Below, in pieces: positions 8,760 to 56,888 of a DNA stretch of 64,000 nucleotides. The translations under genes were made by a program, and so were the position numbers. Source of the DNA: an uncultured Gammaproteobacteria bacterium (GTDB lineage: Bacteria; Patescibacteriota; Microgenomatia; Daviesbacterales; UBA10151); the NCBI GenBank assembly GCA_964649615.1, contig CAZYPW010000002.1:66969-130968 (forward strand), written 5' to 3'. The notes beneath the pieces are model-generated. The model was not told the DNA's origin and made no database searches. It was given only the letters and a program-made list of their open reading frames with translations. Every line of letters begins with the position of its first letter. The stretch's first letter is position 1.

Positions 8760-8792
8760 AAAGGAAATTTTAACAGAAAAAATATCTTGAAG

Positions 8793-40590: not shown

Positions 40591-41955
40591 TTAGTCTTTT
40601 TTGCGAAGAATTTCTGCAGCCCCTACATTATCTATCATGTAATAATTTTCTAAAATATATTGATCAATATCTTTGGCAAAATCAGTAATTTTCATTCCTT
40701 CAATTTCAACTGTCCTGTCAGCCACAATAATCTCGGGTTGGTCTTTTTTAATTCCTGCTAATATTTTATCCTCTGCAACTTTCAAAAACCAGGGAAACTG
40801 AAATACAAAAACCTCTCCTGCGGGTAGGGTTTGTGACATTTGATAAAGATGCGGAGCTGCTCCAAAGACAAAAATTTTATCTCCCTTATTTGTATACTGC
40901 TTAACCTTTTCTGCAATCCCGTAAGTTGATTTATCAAAGAAAAATACCATGTTAGATAAATGGCCCCTATAAAAAATGTTTTGCCACCAAAGAGTAACAA
41001 CCAAATAGAAAGAAGTTAAGATAAAAAGCGCTTTTTTCTTGGGTAATGAATATACTCCTATAGCCGTTCCCAGCATTGCAAAGGGGAGAGAAGGTTGAAA
41101 GTGGACAAAGTTTGCCCTATCAAATGCCCCAACTGCGGACCCTATCAAAAAAAGGGAAAGAATAACTTTAAACCTTTTATCTTTGTACAAAAAATAAGAT
41201 AGCGATGCTGTATAAACTACTAAAACTCTGGAAATAAATCCAAAATTCTCAGGAATTTGTGTACCCGATGAGGCGTAAATAGTTAAATTAAAAACAATGG
41301 TCCAGTACCAAAAATCCTCAAACACACCGATCCAAATAAAGTATAAAACCATTAAAAGAATTGGTGGAAGAAGTCCCACAAGATATTTAACTATTTCTTG
41401 TTTACTTTTTTCTGACCATAATATATAAATGAATACTAAAATAGATAAGGGAATCATTGTCTGCTTAAAAATTATTCCCAATCCAAGAAATATTCCAACC
41501 AGAAAGAACCTTTTTCTGTAAAGTAAATAAAATGCGGGTAAAAGAAATAGCGGTAAAAAATTATCTATCCATAAAACCCATCCTTCAAAAAATGGCTGCC
41601 AGATTAAATATAAAAAGTTTACTAAAAGAGCTTTGTAGCCACTTTTTAAAAAATATCTTGAGATAAAAAATAAAAGTAAATGAGTAATTAATACCACAGA
41701 AATCAACCATGCTCTGGCAACAATTTCATTAACCATTCCTAAATTATCAAAATTAAAGGGTAAAAACATAAATCCAGGAAAATGTTGGTCCAAAATCTGG
41801 GAGTAAGGTTTAAGCCCATTATTTGTTAAATAAGGATAAATAAAAAGCTCTGGATATGGAAAAAAAATTAGTCTGGTTACGACTAGAGAATGAACCAGCA
41901 AAATAATACCTAGTAGTAGATAACACAATCTATCTTTTAACATAATGGTAAACAA
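40591..41955 (-). CDS. Polytopic membrane protein, putative GT-C-type glycosyltransferase
   Basis: A 454-aa protein with at least 10 hydrophobic segments, sitting in a cluster of GT-C genes. No unambiguous motif. Confidence 0.4.
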   Translation of the reverse strand: MFTIMLKDRLCYLLLGIILLVHSLVVTRLIFFPYPELFIYPYLTNNGLKPYSQILDQHFPGFMFLPFNFDNLGMVNEIVARAWLISVVLITHLLLFFISRYFLKSGYKALLVNFLYLIWQPFFEGWVLWIDNFLPLFLLPAFYLLYRKRFFLVGIFLGLGIIFKQTMIPLSILVFIYILWSEKSKQEIVKYLVGLLPPILLMVLYFIWIGVFEDFWYWTIVFNLTIYASSGTQIPENFGFISRVLVVYTASLSYFLYKDKRFKVILSLFLIGSAVGAFDRANFVHFQPSLPFAMLGTAIGVYSLPKKKALFILTSFYLVVTLWWQNIFYRGHLSNMVFFFDKSTYGIAEKVKQYTNKGDKIFVFGAAPHLYQMSQTLPAGEVFVFQFPWFLKVAEDKILAGIKKDQPEIIVADRTVEIEGMKITDFAKDIDQYILENYYMIDNVGAAEILRKKD

Positions 41956-43366
41956 AACCTACTCCATTAAAATTGCGAGTGTCAGTTTGCTCATATCCTA
42001 ACTCTACCAATTTTTTTGAAAGTAACCTATTAGGATCACTAATCTGCACTAAATAATCAACTAAATAAACATCTTTAGAATTTCCCAGTGAAGAGTTTAA
42101 ATCTGAAACTGAATTTTCATCTTTTGCTGGAAAATCTTTTAAGCCTCCCATGGCATTTAAATTTCCCTTTGAATAATAATCAAAAGGGGGCAATGTTCCA
42201 GAGCTTTCAAATAATATAGCTGATGGTTGAAGTTTTTCAAAAAAAACAACTAAGCCTTTCCAATCTTCTCTTTGATACTTTGGATTTAATAAATAAACCA
42301 TGCTGCAAAAAAGTTCTATTAGAACAATGCTTACTAAAAAAATATATTGAAATCTTTTTTTAAAACTTAAAATACCTAAAGAGATTAAAATAATAAAAGC
42401 TGGGATAACAAATAAGACTCTGAAATAGTTATAGATAGGGATAAAAAATGAAATAATAGATGCTAAGCTAAGAGGAATTATTATCCAAAAAAGAAGAAGC
42501 TTAACTGCAAAATCTTTTAATGATCTAACTGCCCGCCAATAAAGATAGATGAATAAACTGCAAACTGGCAGGAGTAAGAGTGTATAAATAACTTTATCAG
42601 CCAAACTAATTCTGCCGATAATAAATTTAACAAAAGTCAGGGGCAGTGCCTTAAAATCAAACTCCCCTACTATAAATTTCCATGTTGGTAAATTAGCAGA
42701 GGCTACAGATCCAACGTCAAATTGATTTAAAAATGTAGGAAGATGCCAGAAACCTGCTAAAACTGCTGCGCTAAATGCCATAATCCACTTTTTAAGGATT
42801 TCTTTTTTAAATAACAAAATAAAAAGTAGCTGGGAGGGAAAAATAAAGTAAGCCACATAATCAGATGCCAGAACAGCTGCATTACTCAGAATAAGAAAAA
42901 TTAAATTAATTTTTTCTCCTTTAATTAATTTTATGAGAAGTAAAATATTAACTGAGACAGCCAAACAGGCAAGTGCATACATTCTGGCCTCCTGGCTATA
43001 GTAGATATGCAAAGGATTAAGGCAAATTAGCAGTGCTGCAACTATACCAAGATGTCTTGAAACTAACTTTTTGCCGATAAGATAAACAACCCAAATATTT
43101 ACCGTCCCAAAAATTACCGATGGCATCCTTACTGCAATTTCAGAGTAACCAAAAATTTTAGTCCAAAACCATAAAATTATAAACCAGCCAGGAGGATGAA
43201 AATCAGCTTTAGCATATTGGGTAATTAAATCAAAAAAAGAATAGTTCTGGGCAGCTTGGGTATTAATTGCCTCATCCAGCCAAAGACTTTGATTTAAGCT
43301 AACTAAGCGGAGTATTAATCCTACTGATATAATCAACCATATCATTTTTTCTTCTCCAGCTCCCAA
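41930..43366 (-). CDS. GT-C fold membrane glycosyltransferase (GT39/PMT_2-like)
   Basis: The first loop SLWLDEAINTQAAQ carries the DE motif of PMT/ArnT-type enzymes. Confidence 0.6.
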   Translation of the reverse strand: MGAGEEKMIWLIISVGLILRLVSLNQSLWLDEAINTQAAQNYSFFDLITQYAKADFHPPGWFIILWFWTKIFGYSEIAVRMPSVIFGTVNIWVVYLIGKKLVSRHLGIVAALLICLNPLHIYYSQEARMYALACLAVSVNILLLIKLIKGEKINLIFLILSNAAVLASDYVAYFIFPSQLLFILLFKKEILKKWIMAFSAAVLAGFWHLPTFLNQFDVGSVASANLPTWKFIVGEFDFKALPLTFVKFIIGRISLADKVIYTLLLLPVCSLFIYLYWRAVRSLKDFAVKLLLFWIIIPLSLASIISFFIPIYNYFRVLFVIPAFIILISLGILSFKKRFQYIFLVSIVLIELFCSMVYLLNPKYQREDWKGLVVFFEKLQPSAILFESSGTLPPFDYYSKGNLNAMGGLKDFPAKDENSVSDLNSSLGNSKDVYLVDYLVQISDPNRLLSKKLVELGYEQTDTRNFNGVGFVYHYVKR

Positions 43367-44097: not shown

Positions 44098-45032
44098 AAA
44101 TTCATAAAAGCCTCCTCATATCTTTTGGCTATCTTTTCCCAGGAAAATTTCTTAGCCTGATTTATAGCTTTAGCCTTCCAATCCCCTTTTAATGCTTGTT
44201 TAATTGCTTGAGCATAATTTTTGATGTCTGAAACATCAACTAAAATCCCTGCCTCCCCTATTATCTCATTTCTTGTCTCATCATTTGGAGCAACTACTCC
44301 TAAGCCCGATGCCATAGCTTCAAGGTAAACTATTCCAAAAGCCTCTCTTTCCCAGGAAGGTAGTACAAAAAGATCAGCACTCCTATATACTTTTGGCAAG
44401 TTTTTATAATCTGCTTTCATAATTTTAAATCTATCTCCTAGTAATCTTTTACCCAAATCCTGCAGTTTATCTTTCTCCTTCCCTTCTCCAACTAAGACTA
44501 AAGATACATCTTTTAATGAACTTAATGCTTTAATAGTCCTCTGATGATATTTATACCAAACCAATGCCCCCACAGATAATACAACTGGCCCTTTGAGTTT
44601 CAAATCTTCCCTTTCCCCATTTGGCTTAAATTTATTTAGATCCACACCATTAGGGATTTTAATTACCTTGCTTCCCCAAGCCCATTTTTTTGACCATCTA
44701 TACATGGAATCCGTTAAAGCAACATATAAATCAGGCTTAGAAATGGCAATATTAAAAATCTCTCCTTTTCCAATTCCAGCTTGTCCAGTAATTGCCAGCT
44801 TGTAATTTTTTTGAAGCCTTCCCAAAGACGCCTTTAAACTTTGTACTCCTCCGTTTACTGCAATAACTATCTGATACTCACCCTTTAAAATCTCATCCAA
44901 AGAATCAGCTTTATCCCCAGATAAAATATTTACCTCATGTCTTTTGCTCAGTTCCCTGCTTAACTCATAAACAAAGGTTTCAGCCCCTCTTTGAACACTA
45001 TCTTGGTACCTACTTAAAAATGCTATCTTCAT
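44094..45032 (-). CDS. Glycosyltransferase family 4 (short)
   Basis: REAFGIVYLEAMASGLGVVAPN. Confidence 0.7.
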   Translation of the reverse strand: MKIAFLSRYQDSVQRGAETFVYELSRELSKRHEVNILSGDKADSLDEILKGEYQIVIAVNGGVQSLKASLGRLQKNYKLAITGQAGIGKGEIFNIAISKPDLYVALTDSMYRWSKKWAWGSKVIKIPNGVDLNKFKPNGEREDLKLKGPVVLSVGALVWYKYHQRTIKALSSLKDVSLVLVGEGKEKDKLQDLGKRLLGDRFKIMKADYKNLPKVYRSADLFVLPSWEREAFGIVYLEAMASGLGVVAPNDETRNEIIGEAGILVDVSDIKNYAQAIKQALKGDWKAKAINQAKKFSWEKIAKRYEEAFMNL

Positions 45033-45037
45033 ATAAT

Positions 45038-46561
45038 TTAATTTCTCTTAATATATGCCCTATATCCACCTTCTTTAATGGAAGATATACCCAACAGGTC
45101 CTCTGATAAAGGTATTCTATCTTCAGATAAAATTATAGTGTAAACAGGAAACCTTTTACTAATCTCGTCAGGATACAGCCACCCTAAACTGTTATCAGTA
45201 TAACTTTGATCAGGAACTCTTCCATATGCTTTAAATAAATATCTCCATCCCTCATAGTTATGGCATATTCCCCTTCCTTCAATAGCAAAACTTTTATCAC
45301 CTACCATACCCATTACTTTATTAATTAACTTTTCTTTAGGGCCTAAACTAAATTCATCTGATGAATTTAAGACTGTATTAATGCCCAAGAGAGAAACAAT
45401 TAATATTAAACCAAAGGCAATCCACTTCATTTTTTTGTTTAGTTCCCCTATCAAAATTGCTGGTACAAAAATAAAGAGAGCGAGAAAAACTAAAGTATAA
45501 TATTCATAAGAACCCCCAGGATAAATAAGATAAAAAAGGGCCGAGACAGTTAAAAATAGGGCTAAAAGTTTATTAGGAAATTTCCTACTATTTAAATTTT
45601 TTCCTATGAAATATAAAACTAATCCTAGAGAAATTATGGATAACCAAGAGGGAGAATATGTTCTTTGGGTATATTTATTAATTACTTCATAACCTGTTGA
45701 TAAAGATAAGGCTGAACAGCCAAAATTTACTTCATCTGCATTAGGAGCTCCAGGTTTTAAATGCCAAAATCGACCCATGCTATCAAATAACGTTCCAAAT
45801 TTTTCTGGTGGATTAAAACTAACCTGTAATTGATGGTTACTTTCCAAAAGTTTACTAAGAACTCTCAAATTACTGAAATTATGGTTCATATCAAAAATAA
45901 TTAGTGGCCAGTAAAAGATTAGAAAAGCAGCTGAGCATAAGATGATTAACTTAATATCCTTAAAGTGCTTATCCTTTATAAAGTACCAGACACCTATCAA
46001 AAGAAGTGGAAAGGGGGGTAGATGGGTTTCAAAGATAAGTCCTGCTAGTCCTGCAAATAAAATCCACCACCATTTATTTTTTTTTACTAATACTAAGGAT
46101 AAAAATAAAAGCACTGCTACTGAAGGCCCAAACATGGGGTTCCAGTATTTTTGATCAAAGAAAACAAACAAAGGTAAAGTTGCATATAATAAAGAAGAAA
46201 TAACTGCCACAGTCAAATTAAAAACTCTTTTTCCTGCCAAAAAAATAACTGCTGTAGTAATTACTCCTAAAAAGGCTGCAAAATAGGCAGTAATTAAAGG
46301 ATCTCCTCTTGATAAAGCCAAAAGGATAGCTGTTAAGTAGACTACATAGGGCCCAATATAAAATTCTAAAGCAGCTGCAACCAAACCAATCCAAATAGGA
46401 TGAGGGTTCAAAACTTGAGTCCAAGCATAAGTGGCTTGATATTCTTCATCTAAATTAAATACATATAAATCAGGCAAACGGTTAAACCTTAAAAAAGCAG
46501 AAATAATTATGATAATTATTAAAAATAGATAAACTCGATATTTTTTTATTAAAGTCCACAT
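45038..46561 (-). CDS. GT-C fold membrane glycosyltransferase, paralog A (507 aa)
   Basis: A DEE loop (FNLDEEYQATYAW). It is about 65% identical to the ORF at 49046..50584, including the C-terminal motif FAIEGRGICHNYEGWRYLFK. Confidence 0.55.
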   Translation of the reverse strand: MWTLIKKYRVYLFLIIIIIISAFLRFNRLPDLYVFNLDEEYQATYAWTQVLNPHPIWIGLVAAALEFYIGPYVVYLTAILLALSRGDPLITAYFAAFLGVITTAVIFLAGKRVFNLTVAVISSLLYATLPLFVFFDQKYWNPMFGPSVAVLLFLSLVLVKKNKWWWILFAGLAGLIFETHLPPFPLLLIGVWYFIKDKHFKDIKLIILCSAAFLIFYWPLIIFDMNHNFSNLRVLSKLLESNHQLQVSFNPPEKFGTLFDSMGRFWHLKPGAPNADEVNFGCSALSLSTGYEVINKYTQRTYSPSWLSIISLGLVLYFIGKNLNSRKFPNKLLALFLTVSALFYLIYPGGSYEYYTLVFLALFIFVPAILIGELNKKMKWIAFGLILIVSLLGINTVLNSSDEFSLGPKEKLINKVMGMVGDKSFAIEGRGICHNYEGWRYLFKAYGRVPDQSYTDNSLGWLYPDEISKRFPVYTIILSEDRIPLSEDLLGISSIKEGGYRAYIKRN

Positions 46562-47101
46562 TTATTGTAGTTTTCTTATTATTTTTGCAGGAACTCCAGC
46601 TACTAAAACTTGTGAGGGAACATCTTTTGTCACCACTGCCCCAGCAGCTACCATGGAATTTTCTCCAATTGTTACCCCAGGTAGAATTGTTGCACAAGCA
46701 CCTATTACAGAACCTCTCTTTAAAATGGTAGGTGAACTGATAGGAGGAAAATATTTTTGTAATGGATGGTCTTTATATCCAACGTTCATATGGGTTAAAA
46801 TTGTAACTCGTTGAGCCAGAGTTACTTCATCTTCCAAAATTACTTTATTATATAAATCTATTAAAGCTTCATCTCCCAAAAAACATTTTTGTCCTAAACT
46901 TAATCCTTTTAATCCTTGATGGTGCCAGTTAAAAAAATGGACATCCATAATAATAGAATCTTGGCCTATTTTTGCTCCTCCTAATATGAGTACCAATTTT
47001 CTCAATTGGGGCAAGAATAATAATTTATAGAATATTTGGAAAAGACTAAAGATAAAAAATTTAAAAGCTTTTTTAAGACCGACTTCTTGAATCGCTTTCA
47101 T
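46562..47101 (-). CDS. Hexapeptide-repeat acetyltransferase (WcaF/PglD-like)
   Basis: [29 protein letters not shown]. Confidence 0.75.
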
Positions 47102-47186
47102 GTTAATATTCTTAGACTATTTGAAGTCTTGCATTCCTAGGATTATAATAACATAACTTTATATTGTAAAAATTTATTAAAATAAT

Positions 47187-47906
47187 ATGTCAAAACCTTA
47201 TCTTTCTTTAGTGCTAGCGCTTTATAATGAAGGACCAACTTTAGAACACAGCCTAAAAAGTATTTACCAATCTTTAAATAGCACTAAGAAATCTTGGGAA
47301 GTAATTCTAGTGGAAGATAAGAGCACTGATAATACCCTGGAAAGGATACAAAAATTATTGCCTAATTTAAAAAATACTAAACTGATTACACACCAAGAAA
47401 ACCAGGGGCGGGGAAGAACTGTTAGTGATGGAATCAAAGCTGCTAAAGGTATTTACAGTGGATTCTTAGATGTGGATTTAGAAGTTTCATCCGAATATAT
47501 ACCACTATTTATTAAAGAATTAGAAAAAGGATTTGATATGGTTGTGGCTAATAGATTTTATGAAAAAAACTTTAGAGCAATCACAAGAGTCGTTAGCTCC
47601 GTGGGTTATAAAATAATCGTTAATACTCTTTTACATCTTCCTATCAATGATACTGAAGCCGGGTACAAATTTTTTAAAACAAACAAAATACTGCCTGTAT
47701 TATCAAAAATTACAGAGAAAGGATGGTTTTGGGATACTGAAATTTGTGCTAGGGCCTACTGGACAGGACTAAAACTTAGCCAAATACCAGTTCTATTTGT
47801 TAGAAATACTAACAAGAAATCTACGGTCAGATTAATACCTGACACTTTGGATTATCTGATAAAAATATATCAATTCAGAATGAAAAATTCTGATAATTTT
47901 AAATAA
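47187..47906 (+). CDS. GT2 polyprenyl-phosphate sugar transferase (ArnC/DPM1/GtrB-like)
   Basis: LSLVLALYNEGPTL, VEDKSTDNT and FLDVDLE (DxD), with a C-terminal amphipathic region. Confidence 0.7.
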   Translation: MSKPYLSLVLALYNEGPTLEHSLKSIYQSLNSTKKSWEVILVEDKSTDNTLERIQKLLPNLKNTKLITHQENQGRGRTVSDGIKAAKGIYSGFLDVDLEVSSEYIPLFIKELEKGFDMVVANRFYEKNFRAITRVVSSVGYKIIVNTLLHLPINDTEAGYKFFKTNKILPVLSKITEKGWFWDTEICARAYWTGLKLSQIPVLFVRNTNKKSTVRLIPDTLDYLIKIYQFRMKNSDNFK

Positions 47907-47910
47907 TTAA

Positions 47911-49041
47911 ATGCCAGTTAATAACTACATTATACCTTTGCACAAACCCTTTTGGGGAAGGGAGGAAGAAAAAGCAGCTGTGCTAGCTATGCGTAATGGA
48001 ATAGGAATCGGGGATTTAAGTTATAGTGAAGAATTATCTAAAGCATTATCGAAATTAATTGGCAGCAAATACGCTCTTCCAGTTGGCTCAGGTACTTCTG
48101 CACTGGAATTAGCCTGCGCTTGTATTTTAAAAAAGGGAGATGAGGTCATTTTACCCTCCTTCACCTTTTCCTCTTGTGCAAATGCTGTGCTTTTGGCTGG
48201 TGCAAAACCTGTCTTTGCAGATATCGATATTCAAACTTACAACATTGATCCGCTAGAGATAGAAAAATTGATCACTAAAAAAACAAAAGCTATCATGGTC
48301 GTGCATTATGCTGGCATGGCAGCTGATATGGCAGCAATCAATAGAATTGCCCAGAACTATAACCTTTTGGTCATTGAAGATGCAGCCCATGCCTTAGGGG
48401 CAAAATACCAGGGAGTGCATTTGGGAACTATCGGCACAATAGGCTGTTACTCATTCCATGGCACTAAAAATGCCGTTTCTGGAGAAGGCGGGGCCTTTAT
48501 TACCAGTGACTCTAAAATTCATAAAGTAGCTGAGATTATCAGGGAAAAAGGAACAAATCGCTCTTCATTTATGAGGGGTGAGAGAAGAAAATATTCTTGG
48601 GTCAGGATCGGACGAAGCTTAATTTTATCTGATATTTTATCAGCAATAGCTCTAGTACAAATCAGAAAATTAAACCAGATTACCACCTTAAGGCAAGAAA
48701 AAGCCCAAAATTTATTGAAGAAGTTGCAGATACTCTCTTCAAAAATCATTTTACCTATAGTAAGCAGTGGAACTGATCCGAACTGGCATATTTTTGCCAT
48801 ACGGGTACCCAGATCTTCCCGCAACCGTATTATAAAAGACCTTAAATCTTATGGAATTGAAGCTGCTTTTCATTTTTTACCTCTCCATACCTCACTGATG
48901 GGACAACAACTGGGTTTTAAAAAAGGAGATTTAGCAGTAACAGAAGAGGTTTCCCAAACATTAATTAGATTGCCAATTTATCCACAGCTGAAAAATAGTG
49001 AAATTGATTATCTGGTGGATGTGTTAAAGAAAATACTTTAA
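47911..49041 (+). CDS. DegT/DnrJ/EryC1/StrS-family PLP-dependent sugar aminotransferase (ArnB/PglE-like)
   Basis: The N-terminus follows the …HKPFWGREE… pattern, and SFHGTKN carries the PLP-binding Lys. Confidence 0.85.
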   Translation: MPVNNYIIPLHKPFWGREEEKAAVLAMRNGIGIGDLSYSEELSKALSKLIGSKYALPVGSGTSALELACACILKKGDEVILPSFTFSSCANAVLLAGAKPVFADIDIQTYNIDPLEIEKLITKKTKAIMVVHYAGMAADMAAINRIAQNYNLLVIEDAAHALGAKYQGVHLGTIGTIGCYSFHGTKNAVSGEGGAFITSDSKIHKVAEIIREKGTNRSSFMRGERRKYSWVRIGRSLILSDILSAIALVQIRKLNQITTLRQEKAQNLLKKLQILSSKIILPIVSSGTDPNWHIFAIRVPRSSRNRIIKDLKSYGIEAAFHFLPLHTSLMGQQLGFKKGDLAVTEEVSQTLIRLPIYPQLKNSEIDYLVDVLKKIL

Positions 49042-49045
49042 TAAT

Positions 49046-50584
49046 TTATTCTTCCTTTCTTATATAGACTCTATATCCTCCAGCTTTAAAAGACTGTAAC
49101 GTTGATAAATCTTCATTCAAAGGTATTCTATCTTCTGAAAGAATAACTGTATACTCTACCTTTATTTTACTTATTTCACTGGGATATAACCATCCTAGGC
49201 TACTATCTGTATAGCTTTGAGCAGGTGTTCTTCCATATACCTTAAATAAATATCTCCAACCTTCATAGTTATGGCATATTCCCCTTCCTTCAATAGCAAA
49301 GCTATCACCTACCACACTCATTACTTTACTAATTAACTGCCTTTTAGGGCCTAAACTAAATTCATCAGAGGTTCTTAAAACAGTATTAATGCCTAAAAAA
49401 GAAATAATAAATATTAGAATTAGTGAAAACAGCTGCTGTCTTTTTTTAAGCCCACTAATTAATATTCCAGGTACAAATATAAATAACACCATAATAGAAA
49501 GAGTGTAGTATTCTGAAGAAGCCCCGGGATAAATTACAAATGAAAGAAGCGCCACTAATAGAAAAAGGGCCAATAATTTATACTCTTTATTTTTACTGCT
49601 TTTGCTTACCCAAAAGAAATAAATAAGTAAAAATAAAGTTAGTATAGATAAGAGGGATGGGGCATCTGTTCTACTAGAGTGAAGATCCATATTTTTAAAT
49701 TCTGATTTAATTGTTAGAGGGTTGCAGCTAAAATTTATTTCATCTGCATTTGGGTTTCCAGCTCTCAAGTACCAGAATCTTCCCAGGCTATCAAAAAGGG
49801 ATTTAAACTTCGTCTCTGGATCAAATGCAATCTTCGATTGGCTAAAACTACTTTTAATCCGGGCAAAAGCAGTTAAATTACTAAAATCATGGTTAAGATC
49901 AAAAACAATAAGCGGCCAATAAAAAAATAAAAATACTAAAACACAACTCAAAAATAATTTTAAATTCTTAAAATATTTATCTTTTAAAAAGAAAAATAAT
50001 CCTATTAGGAAAAGGGGGGCGGGTATTAGATGAGTCTCTAAAACCACTCCAAAAAGTGCTGCATATAAAATCCAAAACCAAGCATTTTTTTTAATTAAAA
50101 CAATTGTCAATAGTAAAAGAACTGTTATTAGATTGGAAAACATAGTATTCCAATATTTTTGATCATAAAAAACAAATAAGGGTAAGGTGGCATATAATAA
50201 TGAGGCTACAGCTCCTGTGGTTAGATTAAATATTTTCCAGCCTACAAAAAATATAACAGTTGTAGTAATCACACCCAAAAATGCAGCAAAGTAGGCAGTA
50301 ATCATTGGGTCACCTGAAGATAACCAAAGAAGGAATGCGCTAAAGTAGGTAAAATAAGGTCCTAGATAAAATTCTAAAAAAGAGGCGCTTACACCAATCC
50401 AGATAGGATGAGGGTCTAAAACTTGGGTCCAGGCATAAGTTGCTTGATACTCTTCATCAAAATTAAATACATAAATATTATTTAAATTATAAAACCGTAA
50501 GAAAGCCGAAAGCCCAACAATTACACTTATTAAAATATAAATTTTAAATTTTTTAAGTAATGTAAAAATACTCATTTTAATCAA
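49046..50584 (-). CDS. GT-C fold membrane glycosyltransferase, paralog B (512 aa)
   Basis: FNFDEEYQATYAWTQVLDPHPIWIG…, which is nearly the same as in paralog A. A shared 38-nt identical stretch lies at 49263-49300 and 45252-45289. Confidence 0.55.
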   Translation of the reverse strand: MIKMSIFTLLKKFKIYILISVIVGLSAFLRFYNLNNIYVFNFDEEYQATYAWTQVLDPHPIWIGVSASFLEFYLGPYFTYFSAFLLWLSSGDPMITAYFAAFLGVITTTVIFFVGWKIFNLTTGAVASLLYATLPLFVFYDQKYWNTMFSNLITVLLLLTIVLIKKNAWFWILYAALFGVVLETHLIPAPLFLIGLFFFLKDKYFKNLKLFLSCVLVFLFFYWPLIVFDLNHDFSNLTAFARIKSSFSQSKIAFDPETKFKSLFDSLGRFWYLRAGNPNADEINFSCNPLTIKSEFKNMDLHSSRTDAPSLLSILTLFLLIYFFWVSKSSKNKEYKLLALFLLVALLSFVIYPGASSEYYTLSIMVLFIFVPGILISGLKKRQQLFSLILIFIISFLGINTVLRTSDEFSLGPKRQLISKVMSVVGDSFAIEGRGICHNYEGWRYLFKVYGRTPAQSYTDSSLGWLYPSEISKIKVEYTVILSEDRIPLNEDLSTLQSFKAGGYRVYIRKEE

Positions 50585-51281
50585 AAAATCTATATCTAAA
50601 AATTGTCCAAACAGCTTTTAGTCCATCAAAAAAATTAATCTTCTTGCCCTCCTCGTAAGTTCTTGGTATAACCTTTATAGGAATCTCCAATATTTTGGCT
50701 CCTTTTTTTAAAAACTTGGCAGTTATTTCAGGCTCAAACTCAAACCCCCTGCTTTTTAGTTTAATTCCGTCAAGGCAGCTTTTTCTAAAAACTTTATAAC
50801 ATGTTTCCATATCAGTCAGGTTGGAATTAAAAAGCAAATTGGTAAGATTTGTTAAAATCTTATTAGCAATCAAATGGGAAGGCAAAATAGTTTTATTCTT
50901 ACCCCAAAACCTAAGAGGATAATCTATGAGCCTGCTTCCATATACTACTTTTGTACGGTTTTGCAGAATTGGTTTAAGTAAAATAGGGTAGTAACTGGGA
51001 TCATATTCTAAATCAGCATCTTGAATAAGGATGATATCCCCCGCTGCAATTTTTAATCCATCTCTTATAGCTGTGCCTTTTCCTAAATTATTTTCATGAA
51101 AAATTTTTTTTATACCCCTCTCATCTCTTATTTCTTTAGAAGTGGCGTCTGTTGAGCCATCATCAACAACAATAATTTCTTTTTTAATCAGGCCTGGTAA
51201 TTTAACAGCATAAACTCTTCTTAAAATTTCATTGATAGTTTTCTCCTCATTAAAGACTGGAATAATTATCGATAAAATCAT
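50577..51281 (-). CDS. GT2 polyprenyl-phosphate glycosyltransferase (DPM1/GtrB/CsbB-like)
   Basis: ILSIIIPVFNEE, VVDDGSTDAT and LIQDADLEY. Confidence 0.75.
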   Translation of the reverse strand: MILSIIIPVFNEEKTINEILRRVYAVKLPGLIKKEIIVVDDGSTDATSKEIRDERGIKKIFHENNLGKGTAIRDGLKIAAGDIILIQDADLEYDPSYYPILLKPILQNRTKVVYGSRLIDYPLRFWGKNKTILPSHLIANKILTNLTNLLFNSNLTDMETCYKVFRKSCLDGIKLKSRGFEFEPEITAKFLKKGAKILEIPIKVIPRTYEEGKKINFFDGLKAVWTIFRYRFFD

Positions 51282-51973
51282 TTGTTAATTTTTCTGGCAA
51301 TAACCAATATAGAAGTTCCCACTGGTGGCTCAAAAATATTTTCAAGCAATAAAAAAATGGGAGAGATTAGATTAAATATTTTAATTTTTCCTTCACTAAC
51401 TTGGGTTTCTTTAAAAAATTTACCTGCAATGAACCATCCGATACTTCCTAGAAAATTTAAGTTTCTAATTTTAACTATTTCAAAATTGCACTCTTTTAGT
51501 AATCTTTCCAATTGTCCCCTTTCGTAACGCCGATAATGACCAATAGATTGATCAATTAAGTTATAAAGAAATTGATGTGCAGGCACAAGTAAAATTAGAA
51601 TTCTATTAGTTGCTAATAATTTATGAATATTTTTAAGGGCTGCTTTATCATCCTTAATATGTTCTAAAACATTTATGCAAACTACAGTACTGAAATTTCT
51701 TTCCTTAAAAAAATACTTTCCACTTTCAACATCTCCAAACCCAATTTGGGCTTTACCTTGAACCCGTTTTTTAGCCTCTTTTATATAATCTTCATTTATA
51801 TCTATAGCTAATAAATGCCCATACTTTGCTAGAAAACTGGTAAAATTACCTATTCCGCAACCAATTTCCAAAATAGGAGGAGTTAAATAATTACTAAATT
51901 GCTTCTTGGTCCATCTGTTATACCAGGTGGCTTGGCTCATTGATTCTAAAGTTTTGCTGGATTGATCAATCAT
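51278..51973 (-). CDS. Class I SAM-dependent methyltransferase
   Basis: ILEIGCGIGNFTSFLAKYG, the glycine-rich motif I. Confidence 0.75.
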   Translation of the reverse strand: MIDQSSKTLESMSQATWYNRWTKKQFSNYLTPPILEIGCGIGNFTSFLAKYGHLLAIDINEDYIKEAKKRVQGKAQIGFGDVESGKYFFKERNFSTVVCINVLEHIKDDKAALKNIHKLLATNRILILLVPAHQFLYNLIDQSIGHYRRYERGQLERLLKECNFEIVKIRNLNFLGSIGWFIAGKFFKETQVSEGKIKIFNLISPIFLLLENIFEPPVGTSILVIARKINK

Positions 51974-52761
51974 AGAATTATTCTCTTTATTTTTCTCAAG
52001 GGGGTTAACATTTTAGCTGTGAGATATTTCAAACCAGAAATTTTTGTCCAGGGAGAGGCAATAAATTCAGGATTTTGATATAAAACTTCTGGAAATTTAA
52101 ATCCATCTTTCACTTGATTCCCTATTTCATACTTAAATTTATCATATTCTCTTTTTTTAGAAGATCTTTTTAAATGAGTTACATGCAAAAATGGAGCATC
52201 CAAAAAAATAATCTTTTCTCTTTCCTGAATTAATTTTCCTTTATTATCAAAAAAGCCCTCTTTTCCGTAAGGCCAATCTAAATGTAGGCCAGAAATACTC
52301 TTACTGAAGGCTTTTAAACTCAAATGCCCGGTTTTGCCTAAAATTTTATATCTGCCTGCTTTCTCATCCTGTAAATGATAAATATCGCCAACTGGAACCA
52401 CCATGGGTACAACTATGCCTTCAATTTTACTGCCAATTTTCTTAATTTCCTTTACCAGACTGTTAATAGAATCTTTCCACCAGATCTCATCTCCATCTAA
52501 AATTAGTATCCAGTCTGCCCTTGACTCTTCAAGCATCTTCTGGCGCATTTTAGTAAACTCAAGGGGGGTAACCTTTCCCACCTGTTTAAACTCAATCTTC
52601 TCTCCTTTAATCTTTTTTAACTCTTTTATAATATCTACAGTTCTGTCTTTAGATCCTGTATCATAAATCAATACTTTATCTACATAATCCACCACACTCA
52701 TGACTGCAAAATACAAAAAATTTTCTTCATTATTCACAATAGTATTAGCCCAAACTTTCAC
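51970..52761 (-). CDS. GT2-like glycosyltransferase
   Basis: LIYDTGSKDRT and ILILDGDE (DxD). Confidence 0.55.
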   Translation of the reverse strand: MKVWANTIVNNEENFLYFAVMSVVDYVDKVLIYDTGSKDRTVDIIKELKKIKGEKIEFKQVGKVTPLEFTKMRQKMLEESRADWILILDGDEIWWKDSINSLVKEIKKIGSKIEGIVVPMVVPVGDIYHLQDEKAGRYKILGKTGHLSLKAFSKSISGLHLDWPYGKEGFFDNKGKLIQEREKIIFLDAPFLHVTHLKRSSKKREYDKFKYEIGNQVKDGFKFPEVLYQNPEFIASPWTKISGLKYLTAKMLTPLRKIKRIIL

Positions 52762-54023
52762 TTTGATTTCCTTAATTTAAATATTAACCAAATTAGAGGA
52801 TAGAGAAAATTAAAAGTCGTACCAGCTAATACTGTTAAAGATGCACCAATAACTCCATAACTTTGTATCATCAGATAACCTAAACTTCCGATTAATAATA
52901 AATGCCCAATTGATACCCATATAAAAACATCTGGCCTGCCAAAATAAAAAATAACACTATGGTGCACTGGTAAAGAGATTAGGAAAACAAGCATTGCTAG
53001 GAATAAAAATATAAATGGCATAATTACCTCCTGGTAGTTTGAACCTAAAAGTATTGGAATAAGATATATTAAGATAGGAATTGTTAAAATGCCCAATAAA
53101 CATAGGCTCAAAACAAACAGTTGGAATTTTTTAAAATAAACTAACATATCTTTACTGCTTTGAAATGAGGCAAATTTTGGTGCTGCCACTAGCCCCAAAG
53201 CAGAAACCAGTTGCGGCATAACTTGAACCAGTTGAGTCGCAGCTCCATAAATTCCTACCTCCCTGCTAGAAAGTAGCGCCGCGTTTAAATAAATATCTAA
53301 TCGGGCGGAAAATGCAGCTATAGCGGTGAAGACAGCAACAGGAATATTATACTTAAATAATTCTTTAGACAAACTAAATTCATCCTTGCTTGCTAAAATT
53401 TTCCTGGAGGGAAGGATAAAAAGAGTTACAAAAAAACCAAAAAATGGCATTAATATATATACTAATAGGCTGTTTTCAACATTAAGCATAAGAAAATACG
53501 CTAGTATAAGTATCAAGATTAATCTTAAAGAGTTAGTAAAAATATTCATCGCACTCCAAAGGAAATATTTCTGGTATGCCTGTAAAGAGGAAGTTGCAAA
53601 GCTAAAAAGTAAAGCTCCTCCTATACCAAAGCAGATTAATCTTAACGGTAAAATTAACTCCGCCTTATGAAAAACTTCAGTTGCTAAAAATGGAGCTAAA
53701 AAGAAAATAATCAAAGAGGATACAAACCAAGCCATCAATTTTATTTCCAGGCTTAGTTTTAAAAATTGGTATGCTTTTATGCTATTTACTGCCAAATTTG
53801 AAGATACAAAACGAATTAATCCGGTATTTGTCCCTAAATCTACTATATCTGCAATTAAAACTAGAGTTGTCAGGGCAATTGTGAGTAATCCAAAATCAGA
53901 GGGACCTAGCAGTCTTGCTAAGATTACATAGAATAAGGCTCCTAAAACCCCATTAATAAGCGTACCAAAAACTGTAATTTGAGATTGTTTAAAAGTGGCT
54001 GTTCTAATAATAGATCTGAGCAT
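52758..54023 (-). CDS. wzx: Wzx-type polysaccharide flippase (MOP superfamily)
   Basis: About 12 TM segments, with the N-terminus FGTLINGVLGALFYVILARLLGPSDFGLL typical of the Polysacc_synt family. Confidence 0.65.
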   Translation of the reverse strand: MLRSIIRTATFKQSQITVFGTLINGVLGALFYVILARLLGPSDFGLLTIALTTLVLIADIVDLGTNTGLIRFVSSNLAVNSIKAYQFLKLSLEIKLMAWFVSSLIIFFLAPFLATEVFHKAELILPLRLICFGIGGALLFSFATSSLQAYQKYFLWSAMNIFTNSLRLILILILAYFLMLNVENSLLVYILMPFFGFFVTLFILPSRKILASKDEFSLSKELFKYNIPVAVFTAIAAFSARLDIYLNAALLSSREVGIYGAATQLVQVMPQLVSALGLVAAPKFASFQSSKDMLVYFKKFQLFVLSLCLLGILTIPILIYLIPILLGSNYQEVIMPFIFLFLAMLVFLISLPVHHSVIFYFGRPDVFIWVSIGHLLLIGSLGYLMIQSYGVIGASLTVLAGTTFNFLYPLIWLIFKLRKSK

Positions 54024-54030: not shown

Positions 54031-56715
54031 TTATATAGTTAAATTTTTAGATTTGCTGTATCTTATTAAAAGTAATATTAATATAAGAACTGTCAGGGAA
54101 GAAATTATCAATCCAAAGTTAACATATTTCTGGGCCTCAAATTCCACAATATATTGTCCATCTTTATCAATTTTATATCCATTCAATAAACTATATACTG
54201 GCAGGGAAGGCTGACCATTCATCTTCCATAGAGAATCATAGTTTTGAGAAAAAACCAAAAATGATTCTCCTGCTAAACCCTCAATAGTTACTATATATTT
54301 AGTAGGATCTATCTTCTGATAAGTTATCTTTGGATTATTTGTATTATTAATATTTACATTAGCAAAATCCAAAACTCTATCCTGTAAGCTCTTTGCTTTA
54401 TCCTGATAATTGAGCCATTCGTTTTTATCTATAGTTACTAATGCATTGACTACATTAATTGGTCCTGTAGAACTTATTTGTAAATCTTCTCCATCTTTTG
54501 GCAACTCCCCAACTTCAAACCATCTAATATTAGTCTTAGCTTCTACCTTAGTTGTTATTTCCCCAATCAATTGATCATCCTGATAAAATTTTAAATCTCC
54601 ACTTCTTGAACTCTCCATTACTCTTACCAAAAGTATGTCATCTTTTTTCACTTTTAACTTTTCATTTTTCACTTTTAACTTTAAATTTCCCTCTCCAACT
54701 GCCCAGCCACCGCCTAAATCAAAATCTTGATTATCAATCTGGTATTTGTTAACTAAAAAATCCCTCCATCTACCTAAATCAGCTGACTCCCTTTTCCACC
54801 AGCCGCTTTGATTAGGTTCAAAATCCAGTTGGTTAGCAGGAAAAATTAAATCAGAAACTTTTATAAAACTGGCTGCCAAATCCACTTCAGTTTTATTATT
54901 TAAAATAATTTTGGCAGTGGGTAATTCATCAATTCTTTTTCCTAGCCCTGGGGATTCTTCTGCAAAAATTAGGGCATTTTTTGATAATTGTAAATTTGCA
55001 CTTTTAGTTGCTTCCTTATAAATACTGTCAGATCCAATTACCCACCATATATTAGAGGGAGCAAAAAATCTATCTTGATGTTTAGTAGTTTTTAGAACAG
55101 GTATTTTCAGAGAATCTACTTTTGAAAGCCAGGGTAATTTGGAGAGCTGATCCAAAAAAAGATAATAATATCTAATATTATCTGGGTGCAAATTATCACG
55201 TCTTTGGTTCAGATATGGATAAACTATATATCCTATTCCTGCTACATCAAAAATTTCCCCCATATATGGAGCTTCTCTTAAGTAGTTAAGGGTTTCATAA
55301 CTTCCTGTTATTCCTACTGCAAATGGTCTCTTTTGAGCATATCTTGATGCTTCGAGTAATGGATGGTTATTACTTACATGTCCAAGAGGCGCCTTAGTGG
55401 GAATCCAAAAAACTCTTGAGTAATTATGGTCATTTTTAAGATATTCACTTAACTCCAAATATTCAAGAATAAATAATGGCTGGGAAAGTAATCCAGTCAT
55501 TTGACCTAAAAAAGCAGGCCTTATTAACCATACAAAATATATCAAAATTAAATATGGGATTATCTTAAAAATATAGCTTTTAAATTTACTTTTTCTTAAA
55601 CTAATTTCCTGAATAGTTATAGCTATCAGAACACTGTAAGCTAAACATATATAAAAGTAGAACTTTGTGGGATCCCTAAAAAGGGAGAATCCAGGGATAT
55701 GCGTAAATAACCAAGAATAAATTTGCCCAAAAGGATTCTGTGATCCCTTAGATAAAAAGACACCTAAAACTGCAACAATCAACCAAAAACCAACAACTTT
55801 ATCTTTCCTCCGCAAAATTGGCGCAAGAAAAACTAAGATTGGAATAAAAATAAAATCCCATCCTAGATTAGATATTTGTCCAAAAATGTTTTTATACCAA
55901 TGGGGTTGTTGTAGCAATAGTGCATGGCCAACTGAAGAAAAACTTAAGAAATCAACCTGAGAAATTCTTTCATAAGTTTGTGGCAATTGGGGAGTCTTTA
56001 TTAAAATTGAAGGCAATATCCAATATGCATGAAATGAAATTAGTACAACTGCAAGAAACATCATACCTAAAAAAGATTGTTTAATTAACTCTAATCTTTT
56101 ACCTATTTTTCTAAAAATTTCAAAAATGAAGCTTAAAAATAATATGGGTATTAAAAGATAAATAAATCTAATATCTAAAATTGATATTAGTAGAATTGAA
56201 GAAGTAAAATATAATTTATATCTGAAACTGTAAACATCCATCATTTTCAAAAAGAGATAAAAAACTAACGGTGAAATGGCATAAACTAAAGCTAAAGAAA
56301 TCTGTCCTCCATCAAAAAGTAAAATAAAATAGCTATTTGCTAGATAAAAAAAGATTCCTAAATATTTTCCAAAACCTTTAATATTAAAGAACCCAAGCAG
56401 TTTTGATGAAGAAAAAAATCCTATTAAAAATACCAGTCCACCCATTAATTTTGTTTGCATGGATGGTGGAATTGATAAAGCTGAAAGAATACTAAATAAA
56501 GAGTGAAGTGGTTGAGCCCAAAGAGTTATGCCAGTGTACTCACCTAAACCATCAGCTACATTTGTTTCTCTAAAGATCCAGGGAATTATCTGTTCTGATA
56601 CAGGAACATCATGCGGTAGGTGATAATCATTAGCTACTCTTACACCCGGTATCCAAAATATCCAAAAGGTAGAAATAAATAGCAGTAAAATTAAAATTGT
56701 AAATTTTTTGTCCAT
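54031..56715 (-). CDS. Giant membrane protein, paralog C (894 aa). It has a polytopic N-terminal domain, a large extracytoplasmic domain and a C-terminal TM anchor. Putative YfhO/GT-C-like glycosyltransferase.
   Basis: Its architecture and its conserved C-terminal module (…NGYKIDKDGQYIVEFEAQKYV…+TM) are shared with the ORFs at 56888..60325 and 60679..64000. Confidence 0.45.
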   Translation of the reverse strand: MDKKFTILILLLFISTFWIFWIPGVRVANDYHLPHDVPVSEQIIPWIFRETNVADGLGEYTGITLWAQPLHSLFSILSALSIPPSMQTKLMGGLVFLIGFFSSSKLLGFFNIKGFGKYLGIFFYLANSYFILLFDGGQISLALVYAISPLVFYLFLKMMDVYSFRYKLYFTSSILLISILDIRFIYLLIPILFLSFIFEIFRKIGKRLELIKQSFLGMMFLAVVLISFHAYWILPSILIKTPQLPQTYERISQVDFLSFSSVGHALLLQQPHWYKNIFGQISNLGWDFIFIPILVFLAPILRRKDKVVGFWLIVAVLGVFLSKGSQNPFGQIYSWLFTHIPGFSLFRDPTKFYFYICLAYSVLIAITIQEISLRKSKFKSYIFKIIPYLILIYFVWLIRPAFLGQMTGLLSQPLFILEYLELSEYLKNDHNYSRVFWIPTKAPLGHVSNNHPLLEASRYAQKRPFAVGITGSYETLNYLREAPYMGEIFDVAGIGYIVYPYLNQRRDNLHPDNIRYYYLFLDQLSKLPWLSKVDSLKIPVLKTTKHQDRFFAPSNIWWVIGSDSIYKEATKSANLQLSKNALIFAEESPGLGKRIDELPTAKIILNNKTEVDLAASFIKVSDLIFPANQLDFEPNQSGWWKRESADLGRWRDFLVNKYQIDNQDFDLGGGWAVGEGNLKLKVKNEKLKVKKDDILLVRVMESSRSGDLKFYQDDQLIGEITTKVEAKTNIRWFEVGELPKDGEDLQISSTGPINVVNALVTIDKNEWLNYQDKAKSLQDRVLDFANVNINNTNNPKITYQKIDPTKYIVTIEGLAGESFLVFSQNYDSLWKMNGQPSLPVYSLLNGYKIDKDGQYIVEFEAQKYVNFGLIISSLTVLILILLLIRYSKSKNLTI

Positions 56716-56717: not shown

Positions 56718-56888
56718 CTATTTACTCAATCTTAAAATATAGAAAACTGTTCCTAGAATAATTAAAATGAAAATATATTCAGAAAAAATTAGTGCAAAAC
56801 CAAAATGATTGGTAATTAGTATTAATCCTAAAAGTAACAATTCCAAAACTGAAAGGATAAATATATTTTGTATTAACTGATTATTCAT
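56718..56888 (-). CDS. Unannotated 56-aa two-TM peptide (MNNQLIQNIFILSVLELLLLGLILITNHFGFALIFSEYIFILIILGTVFYILRLSK)
   Basis: A hand translation. Its ATG overlaps the TGA of the upstream giant gene (TGATG), and its stop lies 2 nt before the start of the next giant gene. It is absent from the ORF track because it falls below the apparent ~60-aa reporting cutoff. Confidence 0.4.
   Translation of the reverse strand: MNNQLIQNIFILSVLELLLLGLILITNHFGFALIFSEYIFILIILGTVFYILRLSK

Follow-up and report, generated by a model that had tools for sequence, protein, structure and literature searches.

Relation to described surface-glycan systems

The Arn (Pmr) system makes its sugar by 4-amination and N-acyl transfer, loads it onto undecaprenyl phosphate with an enzyme of glycosyltransferase family 2 (GT2) and transfers it outside the membrane with a GT-C glycosyltransferase. 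The same order of enzymes can be read at positions 45,038 to 50,584 of a 64,000-nucleotide stretch of contig CAZYPW010000002.1 (assembly GCA_964649615.1; the whole stretch is called the window below), where two paralogous GT-C genes, A and B, flank a trio of genes for a left-handed beta-helix (LbH) acetyltransferase, a GT2 and a DegT aminotransferase. We read the region as an Arn-like module of the three-component type that would decorate a cell-surface glycan from outside the membrane, and assign this reading a probability of about 0.55. Judged by gene content and order, the module is a conserved Microgenomates cassette that appears to have come to lie between tandem GT-C paralogues. The host is an uncultured ultrasmall bacterium of the candidate phyla radiation (CPR), of Daviesbacteria type, and its stretch of genome is low in GC (~33%), with nearly every gene on the minus strand. 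CPR bacteria are not expected to make lipopolysaccharide (LPS) or lipid A, and the acceptor must therefore differ from that of Arn.

The likeness to Arn also extends to structure, where ArnC comes first among the matches to the GT2 and ArnT first among those to GT-C A, and most related cassettes add a UDP-glucuronate decarboxylase. In contrast, the aminotransferase is WecE-like and not ArnB-like, the GT2 has no transmembrane helices, and neither an ArnD-type deacylase nor ArnE/F was seen. ArnA combines a decarboxylase with a formyltransferase, whereas here the decarboxylase is UXS-like and absent from the window, and the LbH acetyltransferase replaces the formyltransferase. By curated sequence models, the system falls outside the ArnT, ArnC and ArnB families. 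An earlier note on this DNA had proposed an ArnB/ArnC/ArnT-like logic, which holds for the nearest folds (ArnC and ArnT) and for the linkage to UXS, but not for the aminotransferase, which misses the ArnB model.

Two systems that modify monoderm cell-wall polysaccharides offer a further comparison. In GacI/J/K/L of Streptococcus pyogenes and PpgS/Rv3632/Rv3779 of Mycobacterium tuberculosis, a GT2 without transmembrane helices likewise makes a polyprenyl phosphate-linked (N-acetyl)hexosamine, which a GT-C enzyme adds as a side chain to the polysaccharide, and GT2b, a second GT2 encoded beside GT-C B, scores 61 bits against the PpgS model. GacK, a Wzx-family protein, is the proposed flippase of the Gac system (10.1101/180810). 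These systems differ from the locus in using ready-made UDP-GlcNAc or UDP-GalNAc, with no dedicated aminotransferase or acetyltransferase of their own, and their DUF2304/GacJ partner is missing here. Three-component systems (GtrA/GtrB/Gtr, CsbB/GtcA/YfhO and the pentofuranose systems of PMC11127046) likewise combine a polyprenyl phosphate-sugar synthase, a flippase and a GT-C enzyme, adding side-chain sugars after polymerisation. In the latter work (PMC11127046), the C-terminal soluble domain of a GT-C enzyme can bind the acceptor, ORF12-C being a carbohydrate-binding module. In contrast to the proteins described here, GtrB and CsbB have C-terminal transmembrane helices, and the sugars that these systems carry are pentofuranoses or neutral hexoses. 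The window has no adjacent flippase of the GtrA or MATE type.

The dTDP-Fuc4NAc branch of enterobacterial common antigen (RmlA/RmlB/WecE/WecD/WecF) resembles the locus in its WecE-type aminotransferase and in the order of amination followed by acetylation, and differs from it in that no RmlA/RmlB genes are linked here. In that branch WecD is a GNAT and not an LbH protein, and Fuc4NAc is added by the cytoplasmic Leloir enzyme WecF, not through polyprenyl phosphate and a GT-C enzyme. Nothing substantive linking Arn-type chemistry (Ara4N/ArnT) to CPR was found in the literature library that was searched.

Predicted functions of the encoded proteins

The earlier note had listed five open reading frames and had described the GT-C pair as flanking a minus-strand LbH acetyltransferase and a plus-strand GT2-DegT pair; the positions and strands of all five genes, and this arrangement, were confirmed. 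None of the five proteins has a public name. The features of the locus, including two adjoining genes, are as follows (aa, amino acids; pLDDT, predicted local distance difference test, here for an AlphaFold2 (AF2) model).

45038-46561, minus strand: GT-C A, 507 aa; PMT_2 30.2 bits, passing the cutoff of 26.1
45252..45289, minus strand: 38-nt tract in GT-C A, coding for FAIEGRGICHNY(E), within a block of 82-84% identity that specifies the C-terminal domain
46562-47101, minus strand: LbH acetyltransferase, 179 aa, directly adjoining the GT-C A start; Hexapep 47.9 bits, Hexapep_2 32.9 bits
47102..47186, no strand: divergent intergenic region between LbH and GT2, 85 bp, with back-to-back promoter-like sites
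47187-47906, plus strand: GT2, 239 aa; Glycos_transf_2 91 bits; AF2 pLDDT 88.7; no transmembrane segment
47911-49041, plus strand: DegT aminotransferase, 376 aa, starting 4 nt past the GT2 stop; DegT_DnrJ_EryC1 317 bits
49046-50584, minus strand: GT-C B, 512 aa; PMT_2 17.8 bits, below the cutoff of 26.1
49263..49300, minus strand: partner 38-nt tract in GT-C B, identical to 45252-45289
50577..51281, minus strand: GT2b, 234 aa; Glycos_transf_2 114.5 bits; no transmembrane segment; DPM1/AglJ/PpgS-like
52758..54023, minus strand: Wzx/Polysacc_synt flippase, Polysacc_synt 71.6 bits, in a conserved backbone position

GT-C A comprises a polytopic N-terminal membrane domain and a C-terminal soluble domain (aa ~400-507). 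Its AF2 model, built from a 50-sequence alignment (pLDDT 86.6; predicted TM-score, pTM, 0.89), confirmed a predicted GT-C fold, as all 12 Foldseek matches at E<=1e-3 were GT-C enzymes. ArnT was the top match (5F15; E 8e-8, TM 0.57/0.54, identity ~10%), after which came AglB/STT3/PglB, Pmt4 and ALG9/12, AftA falling slightly outside the threshold at E 1.4e-3 (identities 10-14%). By sequence, GT-C A does not belong to ArnT (GT83), given the ~10% identity and the absence of any NCBIfam match at E<=1e-3, the latter also true of GT-C B. The motif D38-E39-E40, invariant in 50 family members, lies ~10 residues after the first transmembrane segment and would fall in the first extracytoplasmic loop, as judged by analogy and by the positive charge of the N-terminus. 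The family also shows no variation at C282 or, within the C-terminal domain, at C433-H434 and W439-R440. At E<=1e-10 an exhaustive profile search gave 1,475 representative clusters, a number that falls to 212 at E<=1e-30. Homologs of GT-C A belong to Candidatus Daviesbacteria and other Microgenomates/Patescibacteria and carry no annotation beyond 'glycosyltransferase family 39' or hypothetical. By analogy, GT-C A is a candidate transferase for the lipid-linked sugar of the cassette.

The two GT-C proteins have the lengths of about 510 aa given in the earlier note, but they are 60% identical (78% similar over 507 aa) and not ~65%. Both contain the common C-terminal sequence FAIEGRGICHNYEGWRYLFK, and their longest common DNA tract is exactly 38 nt, as had been noted. 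Given the local identity profile, and with independence of sites assumed, a run of at least 38 nt has P~0.03 and is mildly unusual, and the third-codon-position identity in the region of the tract (0.675) is barely above the gene-wide value of 0.63. These values lend little weight to recent gene conversion as the source of the tract in the window. The start of GT-C B (50573-50584) is ambiguous: a TTG at 50584 gives 512 aa and an 8-nt overlap with GT2b, while the public gene call begins three codons later at ATG 50575, giving 509 aa and a 1-nt gap to GT2b.

The earlier note had taken the GT2 for a polyprenyl phosphate sugar transferase, and its predicted structure agrees with this. Ranks 1-23 of its Foldseek matches are all ArnC, GtrB or dolichyl-phosphate mannose synthase (DPMS), that is, polyprenyl-phosphate glycosyltransferases (E 7e-17 to 1.6e-13; TMq 0.65-0.80 over 219-250 columns, nearly the whole chain), with ArnC (9BHC, E 7e-17, identity ~20-22%) at the top, then GtrB and the P. 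furiosus DPMS. In its GT-A catalytic domain, invariant residues cover the DxD and nucleotide-binding motifs (D44/S46/D48, D95-x-D97, D155-T-E157 and W180-FWDTE185). No hydrophobic or transmembrane segment was found in the GT2, whose model ends in a helix at 216-238, and the C-terminal membrane anchor that the note expected of polyprenyl phosphate transferases is therefore absent. Human DPM1 likewise has no transmembrane helices. Because GacI and PpgS are active polyprenyl phosphate GT2 enzymes without transmembrane segments (10.1101/180810), a refutation based on the anchor is too strict, and its absence was rejected as a disproof. The GT2 is also genomically coupled to GT-C genes across related loci. 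From its modelled fold we infer that it is a polyprenyl-phosphate amino-sugar synthase.

The aminotransferase passes the WecE-type NCBIfam equivalog NF008687 (385.9 versus a cutoff of 375) and matches WecE (6BLG, 8.5e-75) ahead of ArnB (6e-53) in the PDB. Its pyridoxal phosphate (PLP) lysine, K186, is present in the motif SFHGTKN. These hidden Markov model (HMM) and residue matches place it among the sugar enzymes of the DegT group, and on this sequence evidence it is a PLP-dependent sugar 4-aminotransferase. It scores below the PseC cutoff (246 versus 423.5) and below that of the TIGR02379 subfamily (337 versus 435). The PglE/PglD kinship suggested in the earlier note is not borne out, since the PseC/PglE score is as just given and the LbH protein scores 59 against the NeuD/PglB/VioB model TIGR03570 (cutoff 160.8), matching it in the repeat region only; with both models far under cutoff, a Pgl-type reading was rejected.

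The LbH acetyltransferase has an N-terminal hydrophobic or amphipathic segment (aa 12-30) and invariant His104 and His112. Its best NCBIfam match is WcaF (69 versus a cutoff of 192), with the Maa, LacA and NeuD families close behind. A family profile made from seven orthologs and searched against the PDB matched the sugar N-acetyltransferase FdtD (1e-19), LacA (9e-18, with the longest coverage), 7S43 (7e-17) and WlbB (1e-15). The N-acetylated product that the earlier note thought probable is therefore not established, as the protein scores alike against sugar N-acetyltransferases and against O-acetyltransferases of the Maa/LacA/WcaF kind. Derivation by recent duplication of a second LbH gene in the backbone of the surrounding cluster (37811-38428) was rejected at ~36% identity.

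The divergent gap between the LbH and GT2 genes contains the two best sigma-70-like matches of 44800-51500, which are consensus matches only: TTTACA-17-TATAAT on the minus strand (11/12) and TTGAAG-17-TATAAT on the plus strand (10/12). The total number of such matches in 44800-51500 is not above that of shuffled sequences.

Recurrence of the cassette in Microgenomates

The trio was followed across related genomic and metagenomic loci, labelled by L-numbers. The GT2 family is far broader than the GT-C family, with 1,127 matches that include Curtissbacteria. In L028, L030 (Curtissbacteria) and L031, orthologs of the GT2 (56-73% identical), DegT (70-82%) and LbH (61-68%) are co-located, and LbH orthologs (61-74% identical) always occur together with GT2/DegT. 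L030 and L031 also encode a 527-537-aa membrane protein that matches GT-C A (E 6e-30 and 3e-26, respectively) better than B, and the best local match of GT-C A to the Curtissbacteria-type GT-C associated with the trio reaches 114 bits.

A metagenome scan with the GT2 alignment yielded 80 loci. Where the GT2 was at least 49% identical and at least 500 nt lay downstream, DegT followed immediately in 32 of 35 loci, and in L059 the two genes overlapped, which brings the total to 33 of 35; at the same GT2 identity, an LbH ortholog was found in 13 of the 18 loci with at least 7 kb upstream. In a more distant clade (GT2 42-48% identical), an LbH ortholog lay immediately downstream of the GT2 in 17 of 26 loci, followed in at least six by a gene for a polytopic protein of 460-640 aa; two of these proteins pass PMT_2 and four are 30-34% identical to the GT-C of L030. 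The aminotransferases of this clade vary, being WecE-type in L108 (436 bits), ArnB-like in L094 and L112 and PseB/PseC-like in L103. The stable core is thus an aminotransferase, an LbH acetyltransferase, an ArnC-like GT2 and a GT-C enzyme, in several gene orders. Co-occurrence across genomes, which the earlier note had named as a check on its proposal, thus extends through Microgenomates.

L028 is another Daviesbacteria-type version without UXS. Upstream of its trio (L028:1-4836) lies a WbpA/B/E/D- or TviB/C-like set comprising UDPG_MGDP_dh, a short-chain dehydrogenase/reductase (SDR), a GFO_IDH_MocA oxidoreductase, a second DegT and a second LbH, which suggests a separate pathway to a di-N-acetylated uronic acid.

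Arrangement and history of the GT-C pair

Mapping of the window proteins onto 27 Daviesbacteria-type loci revealed a conserved backbone. Its first half runs big894 – Wzx – GT2c – MT – GT2b – [slot 1] – GT4 – GT2d, and its second half continues GT-C C – GT-C D – GT4 – [slot 2] – GT4 – LbH2. The distribution of A/B-family members over the two slots is given below.

Slot 1 only: L005-L008, L011
Slot 2 only: L012, L014, L015, L022
Both slots: L003/L009
Slot 1, B- and A-type in direct tandem with nothing between: L032 and the CAZYBP metagenome-assembled genome (MAG)
B, DegT and GT2 (these two on the opposite strand), LbH, A: the window, L001 (GCA_943356485.1), L029, L033

The trio thus stands between the GT-C pair in only four loci, the window included; its genes are intact in L001, L029 and L033, which keep the reduced arrangement at 65-80% protein identity. 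In the window, the 2.5-kb trio (46562-49045) fills precisely the interval from the B stop to the A start. Because relatives carry the bare GT-C tandem, the trio lies between pre-existing duplicates, and the bracketing is not a designed unit. Either the trio was inserted between A and B or it was lost from the bare-tandem lineages. In a neighbour-joining tree, the A-type proteins of tandem-only and trio-bearing genomes form one clade, so that the A/B duplication predates the divergence of these lineages. B falls among the single-copy slot-1 genes and is the positional ortholog of the relatives' single-copy gene.

The C-terminal region of the pair has a distinct history in two relatives. The paralogs of L001 (6027-7538 versus 10001-11530) share a 397-nt exact tract at the 3' end and a 60-nt tract near column 379, and those of L032 (6511-8004 versus 8001-9530) share a 141-nt exact tract at the 3' end. 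Outside these tracts the paralogs are ~46-73% identical, and the tract lengths are far beyond chance, which indicates gene conversion of the region encoding the C-terminal domain, unless the tracts reflect assembly artefact or chimerism in the MAGs. The 38-nt tract of the window falls in the same 3' hotspot.

GT-C B is coupled to GT2b, a gene outside the finding of the earlier note. In Daviesbacteria that have a slot-1 GT-C, GT2b sits directly upstream of it, a synteny seen in more than 10 loci, and GT2b is likely the donor synthase for GT-C B. Its NCBIfam scores are 114.5 bits for AglJ and 60.9 bits for PpgS, each below cutoff. GT2b is 26% identical to the GT2 over its full length, and at this identity the two were rejected as recent duplicates.

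Identity of the sugar

The gene that follows DegT in most other cassettes bears on the sugar. The SDR encoded there (SDR319) has dTDP-glucose 4,6-dehydratase as its best NCBIfam match (166 bits), an assignment overturned by its TSE motif and its match to UXS1: it carries the motifs FASTSEVYGDP and YDEAKR and matches human UXS1 at E 4e-98, the next best match being at 3e-46. Public sources also name its orthologs UDP-glucuronate decarboxylase, and these motifs and matches identify SDR319 as a UXS-type UDP-glucuronate decarboxylase. Of 21 informative loci, 13 have UXS as the gene immediately after DegT, and five more have it at another place in the locus (18/21 in total). The UXS of the L115 cassette matches a Daviesbacteria protein, and the SDR neighbouring UXS in cassettes resembles UDP-glucuronate 4-epimerases. 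That a UDP-glucuronate decarboxylase follows DegT in most versions strengthens the Arn analogy.

Two kinds of sugar can be derived from this evidence: UXS in most other cassettes implies a 4-acetamido-4-deoxypentose (Ara4NAc-like), whereas WecE as the best family of DegT implies a 4-acetamido-4,6-dideoxyhexose. In the pentose case, the locus would be a true analogue of Arn and would make polyprenyl phosphate-linked 4-acetamido-4-deoxy-L-arabinose, or its xylo epimer, from UDP-glucuronate through a UXS-type decarboxylase. GT2-DegT-UXS is the commonest form of the operon, the DegT of the window is 63-75% identical to the DegTs of such operons, ArnC and ArnT are the nearest structures, and UXS and ArnA follow a common reaction path as far as UDP-4-keto-pentose (PMC3438964). 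WecE-type stereochemistry (galacto, with an axial C4) would moreover give the L-arabino configuration. Several results count against a pentose. DegT lies far below the ArnB model NF008658 (232.8 versus a cutoff of 631), and the window has neither UXS nor UGDH. Human UXS1 retains the keto-pentose intermediate through Arg277 and Glu120 (PMC3438964), and SDR319, which looks like a canonical UDP-xylose synthase, keeps the equivalents of both residues and may therefore simply make UDP-xylose. As a predictor of keto-pentose release the residue pair proved uninformative, both positions being conserved. We regard the pentose as a possibility that falls just short of even odds.

In the hexose case, the lipid-linked sugar would be a 4-acetamido-4,6-dideoxyhexose, Fuc4NAc- or Qui4NAc-like, made from dTDP- or CDP-4-keto-6-deoxyglucose supplied elsewhere in the genome, and the UXS of the cassettes would serve some other step. 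DegT passes the WecE-type cutoff, and its matches to WecE structures are better than that to ArnB by over 20 orders of magnitude; in L108, GT2-LbH occurs together with a WecE-type DegT; and the residues that hold the keto-pentose in UXS are retained in SDR319. L030 (14834-16557) has a near-cutoff glucose-1-phosphate cytidylyltransferase (277 versus 300 bits) and a CDP-glucose 4,6-dehydratase-like SDR, from which a CDP-6-deoxyhexose branch would coexist there with the UXS branch. However, the best HMM match does not fix the substrate, no 4,6-dehydratase adjoins DegT in any examined cassette, where the conserved neighbour is UXS, and we know of no described polyprenyl phosphate-linked 4-amino-4,6-dideoxyhexose. 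A hexose is accordingly proposed only tentatively, at less than an even chance. The two L030 genes also adjoin an ABC-2 transporter pair and a GtrA-like gene (GtrA_DPMS_TM).

Proposed pathway and alternative explanations

In the proposed Arn-like module, DegT, in which the fold and the PLP lysine are recognisable, would aminate a nucleotide-activated 4-keto sugar at C4. The LbH protein would then acetylate the sugar, most simply at the new amine and before loading, by analogy with the formylation of Ara4N by ArnA. The ArnC-like GT2, identified by its fold, would load the product onto polyprenyl phosphate on the inner side of the membrane, and a flippase would carry the lipid-linked sugar across, the nearby Wzx being a candidate. 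Outside, GT-C A would transfer the sugar onto the glycan made by the surrounding cluster of phosphoglycosyltransferase (PGT), GT4, Wzx and Wzy_C proteins, and GT-C B would do likewise with the product of its own partner, GT2b. Because the paralogs keep a near-identical C-terminal extracytoplasmic domain, homogenised in sister genomes, one shared acceptor and two donors are suggested. The trio is tied to A in particular by the position of GT-C A, which abuts LbH and is co-oriented with it, reading away from the divergent promoter-like gap, and by its better match than B to the GT-C that accompanies the trio elsewhere. The general logic of the earlier note, in which a lipid-linked amino sugar is made inside and moved outside by GT-C enzymes, is thus supported by the folds of the GT2 and GT-C A, by K186 and by the recurrence of the cassette, while its Pgl kinship and N-acetylation are not.

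A number of observations weigh against this pathway, and several of them speak for a rival explanation, in which the GT2 is an ordinary cytoplasmic Leloir enzyme that adds the acetamido sugar made by DegT and LbH to an undecaprenyl diphosphate-linked repeat unit. The GT-C enzymes would then be unconnected to the trio and would draw solely on the hexose donor that GT2b makes. The GT2 lies far under every NCBIfam equivalog cutoff, those for polyprenyl phosphate glycosyltransferases included (ArnC 39 versus 529, PpgS 20 versus 370, AglJ 46 versus 325), it has no transmembrane helix, and no GtrA, ArnE/F or GacJ-like small membrane partner was found in the window. Ordinary GT2 enzymes begin at E 1.6e-13 (RmlT) in its Foldseek results, a modest gap, and the setting is rich in Leloir GT2 and GT4 enzymes, with PGT, Wzx and Wzy_C. 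A-type GT-C proteins occur without the trio (L032 and the CAZYBP MAG), and only V60L and G119A, both conservative, are diagnostic of the trio-associated A proteins relative to the rest of the family, so that there is no sign that A gained a new donor specificity. Against the Leloir explanation stand the 23 best structural matches of the GT2, which are polyprenyl phosphate glycosyltransferases throughout and cover nearly the whole chain, the abutting and co-oriented GT2-LbH-GT-C operon of the distant clade, and the GT-C genes that flank the trio in every long locus examined. We consider it unlikely.

The source and the modification of the sugar raise further difficulties for the Arn-like module. 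No maker of a 4-keto sugar was found in the 64-kb window (no SDR of any kind, RmlA/RmlB, UGDH or UXS), and a search for RmlA/RmlB, UGDH and UXS just past its left edge was also negative. The LbH protein is about equally like O- and N-acetyltransferases, and its invariant His112 aligns with the catalytic loop of LacA. Beside those of L030, L031 and L115, the version in the window is a reduced one, missing the decarboxylase and the epimerase-like SDR as well as the methyltransferase and the DUF2142/PMT_2 partners, and the trio might thus be a truncated, orphan remnant of a larger cassette that has lost UXS, other SDRs and its cognate GT-C enzymes and no longer contributes to a glycan. However, all three genes are intact, with their invariant catalytic residues, the reduced arrangement is conserved in three other loci, and L028 also does without UXS, all of which makes decay of this kind highly improbable.

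A wider proposal is that Microgenomates run a genuine aminopentose pathway, in which UXS and the WecE-like DegT yield UDP-4-amino-4-deoxy-L-arabinose, LbH N-acetylates it, the GT2 without transmembrane helices loads it and an ArnT-like GT-C enzyme transfers it to an S-layer or cell-wall glycan. We regard this as rather doubtful. If it were true, no earlier Arn-type system known to us would have a target other than lipid A or come from a monoderm-type, LPS-free lineage, and the duplicated GT-C enzymes with gene-converted acceptor domains would offer a means of adding two different side-chain sugars to a single polymer. A large part of bacterial diversity belongs to CPR/Patescibacteria, which live attached to the cells of hosts and whose surface glycans are almost uncharted. 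The conserved and portable set of aminotransferase, acetyltransferase, ArnC-like GT2 and GT-C enzyme provides a testable hypothesis for surface amino sugars in this group and would extend Arn-type chemistry, familiar from the polymyxin resistance of Gram-negative bacteria, to a lineage without LPS. The evolutionary series from one GT-C gene to a tandem pair, and from there to a pair with a cassette, with conversion confined to the C-terminal domain, clearly illustrates how diversity of glycan side chains is built up. Should the mechanism prove ordinary, the value would lie mainly in better annotation of several thousand unnamed proteins.

The surrounding glycan cluster and other features of the window

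The locus belongs to a ~28-kb glycan cluster that adjoins a division and cell wall (dcw)/peptidoglycan cluster encoding MraZ, MraW, a penicillin-binding protein (PBP), Mur ligases, MraY, FtsW, MurG, FtsA and FtsZ. The glycan cluster further contains genes for a DUF4012 protein, a small Bac_transf phosphoglycosyltransferase, six GT4 and three further GT2 enzymes, a methyltransferase (MT), the second LbH protein, Wzy_C, Wzx and an 894-aa membrane protein. Wzx shares a minus-strand operon with GT2c-MT-GT2b-GT-C B and, by analogy, is a candidate flippase for lipid-linked sugars or repeat units.

Further GT-C genes occur in the window at the following positions.

34383-35846, 40591-41955 and 41930-43366: three further PMT_2-like GT-C genes, in the glycan cluster
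318-1379: PIG-V-like (Mannosyl_trans2) GT-C gene

None of these four has BLAST-level kinship to A or B (E>=0.003). With A and B included, the window holds at least six GT-C-type genes, an unusual density for one 64-kb stretch.

Two proteins with the Wzy_C domain (O-antigen ligase/polymerase-like) are encoded at 35848-37269 and 1279-2541. The domain is also found in O-oligosaccharyltransferases of S-layer-glycosylating Gram-positive bacteria, and protein glycosylation is therefore a possible fate of the glycan. Adjoining the cluster are genes for three very large proteins without Pfam matches (54031-56715, 56888-60325 and 60679-63939; 894, 1145 and 1086 aa), which could be further glycan-handling enzymes or export components. 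The 894-aa protein has multiple predicted transmembrane segments and a weak MmpA-family match (37 bits versus a cutoff of 210), and its orthologs are the first gene of the conserved backbone in all Daviesbacteria loci; the 1145- and 1086-aa proteins have hydrophobic N-termini.

Several 'binchicken' MAGs with a Daviesbacteria-type cluster are publicly labelled 'uncultured Gammaproteobacteria bacterium' (L004-L006, L011, L012, L016, L018, L020, L022, L024 and L027), which, given their gene content and synteny, looks like a placeholder or mislabel.

Within the dcw cluster, an IS200-like Y1 transposase gene on the plus strand (13264-14004) lies amid minus-strand genes, between those for MurG and for a HAD-hydrolase and FtsW. 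At the position expected for MurB, between MurA-like and Mur-ligase genes, a 194-aa open reading frame (19482-20066, minus strand) encodes a FAD_binding_4 domain only and may be a truncated or split MurB. A 166-aa protein with the PaaX central Cas2-like domain (PaaX_M, 81 bits) is encoded at 21541-22041 (minus strand), between a Mur ligase gene and a PBP gene. Two FtsW/RodA/SpoVE-family paralogs (4865-5938 and 14904-15995, minus strand) suggest that separate elongation and division SEDS proteins are maintained in a reduced genome.

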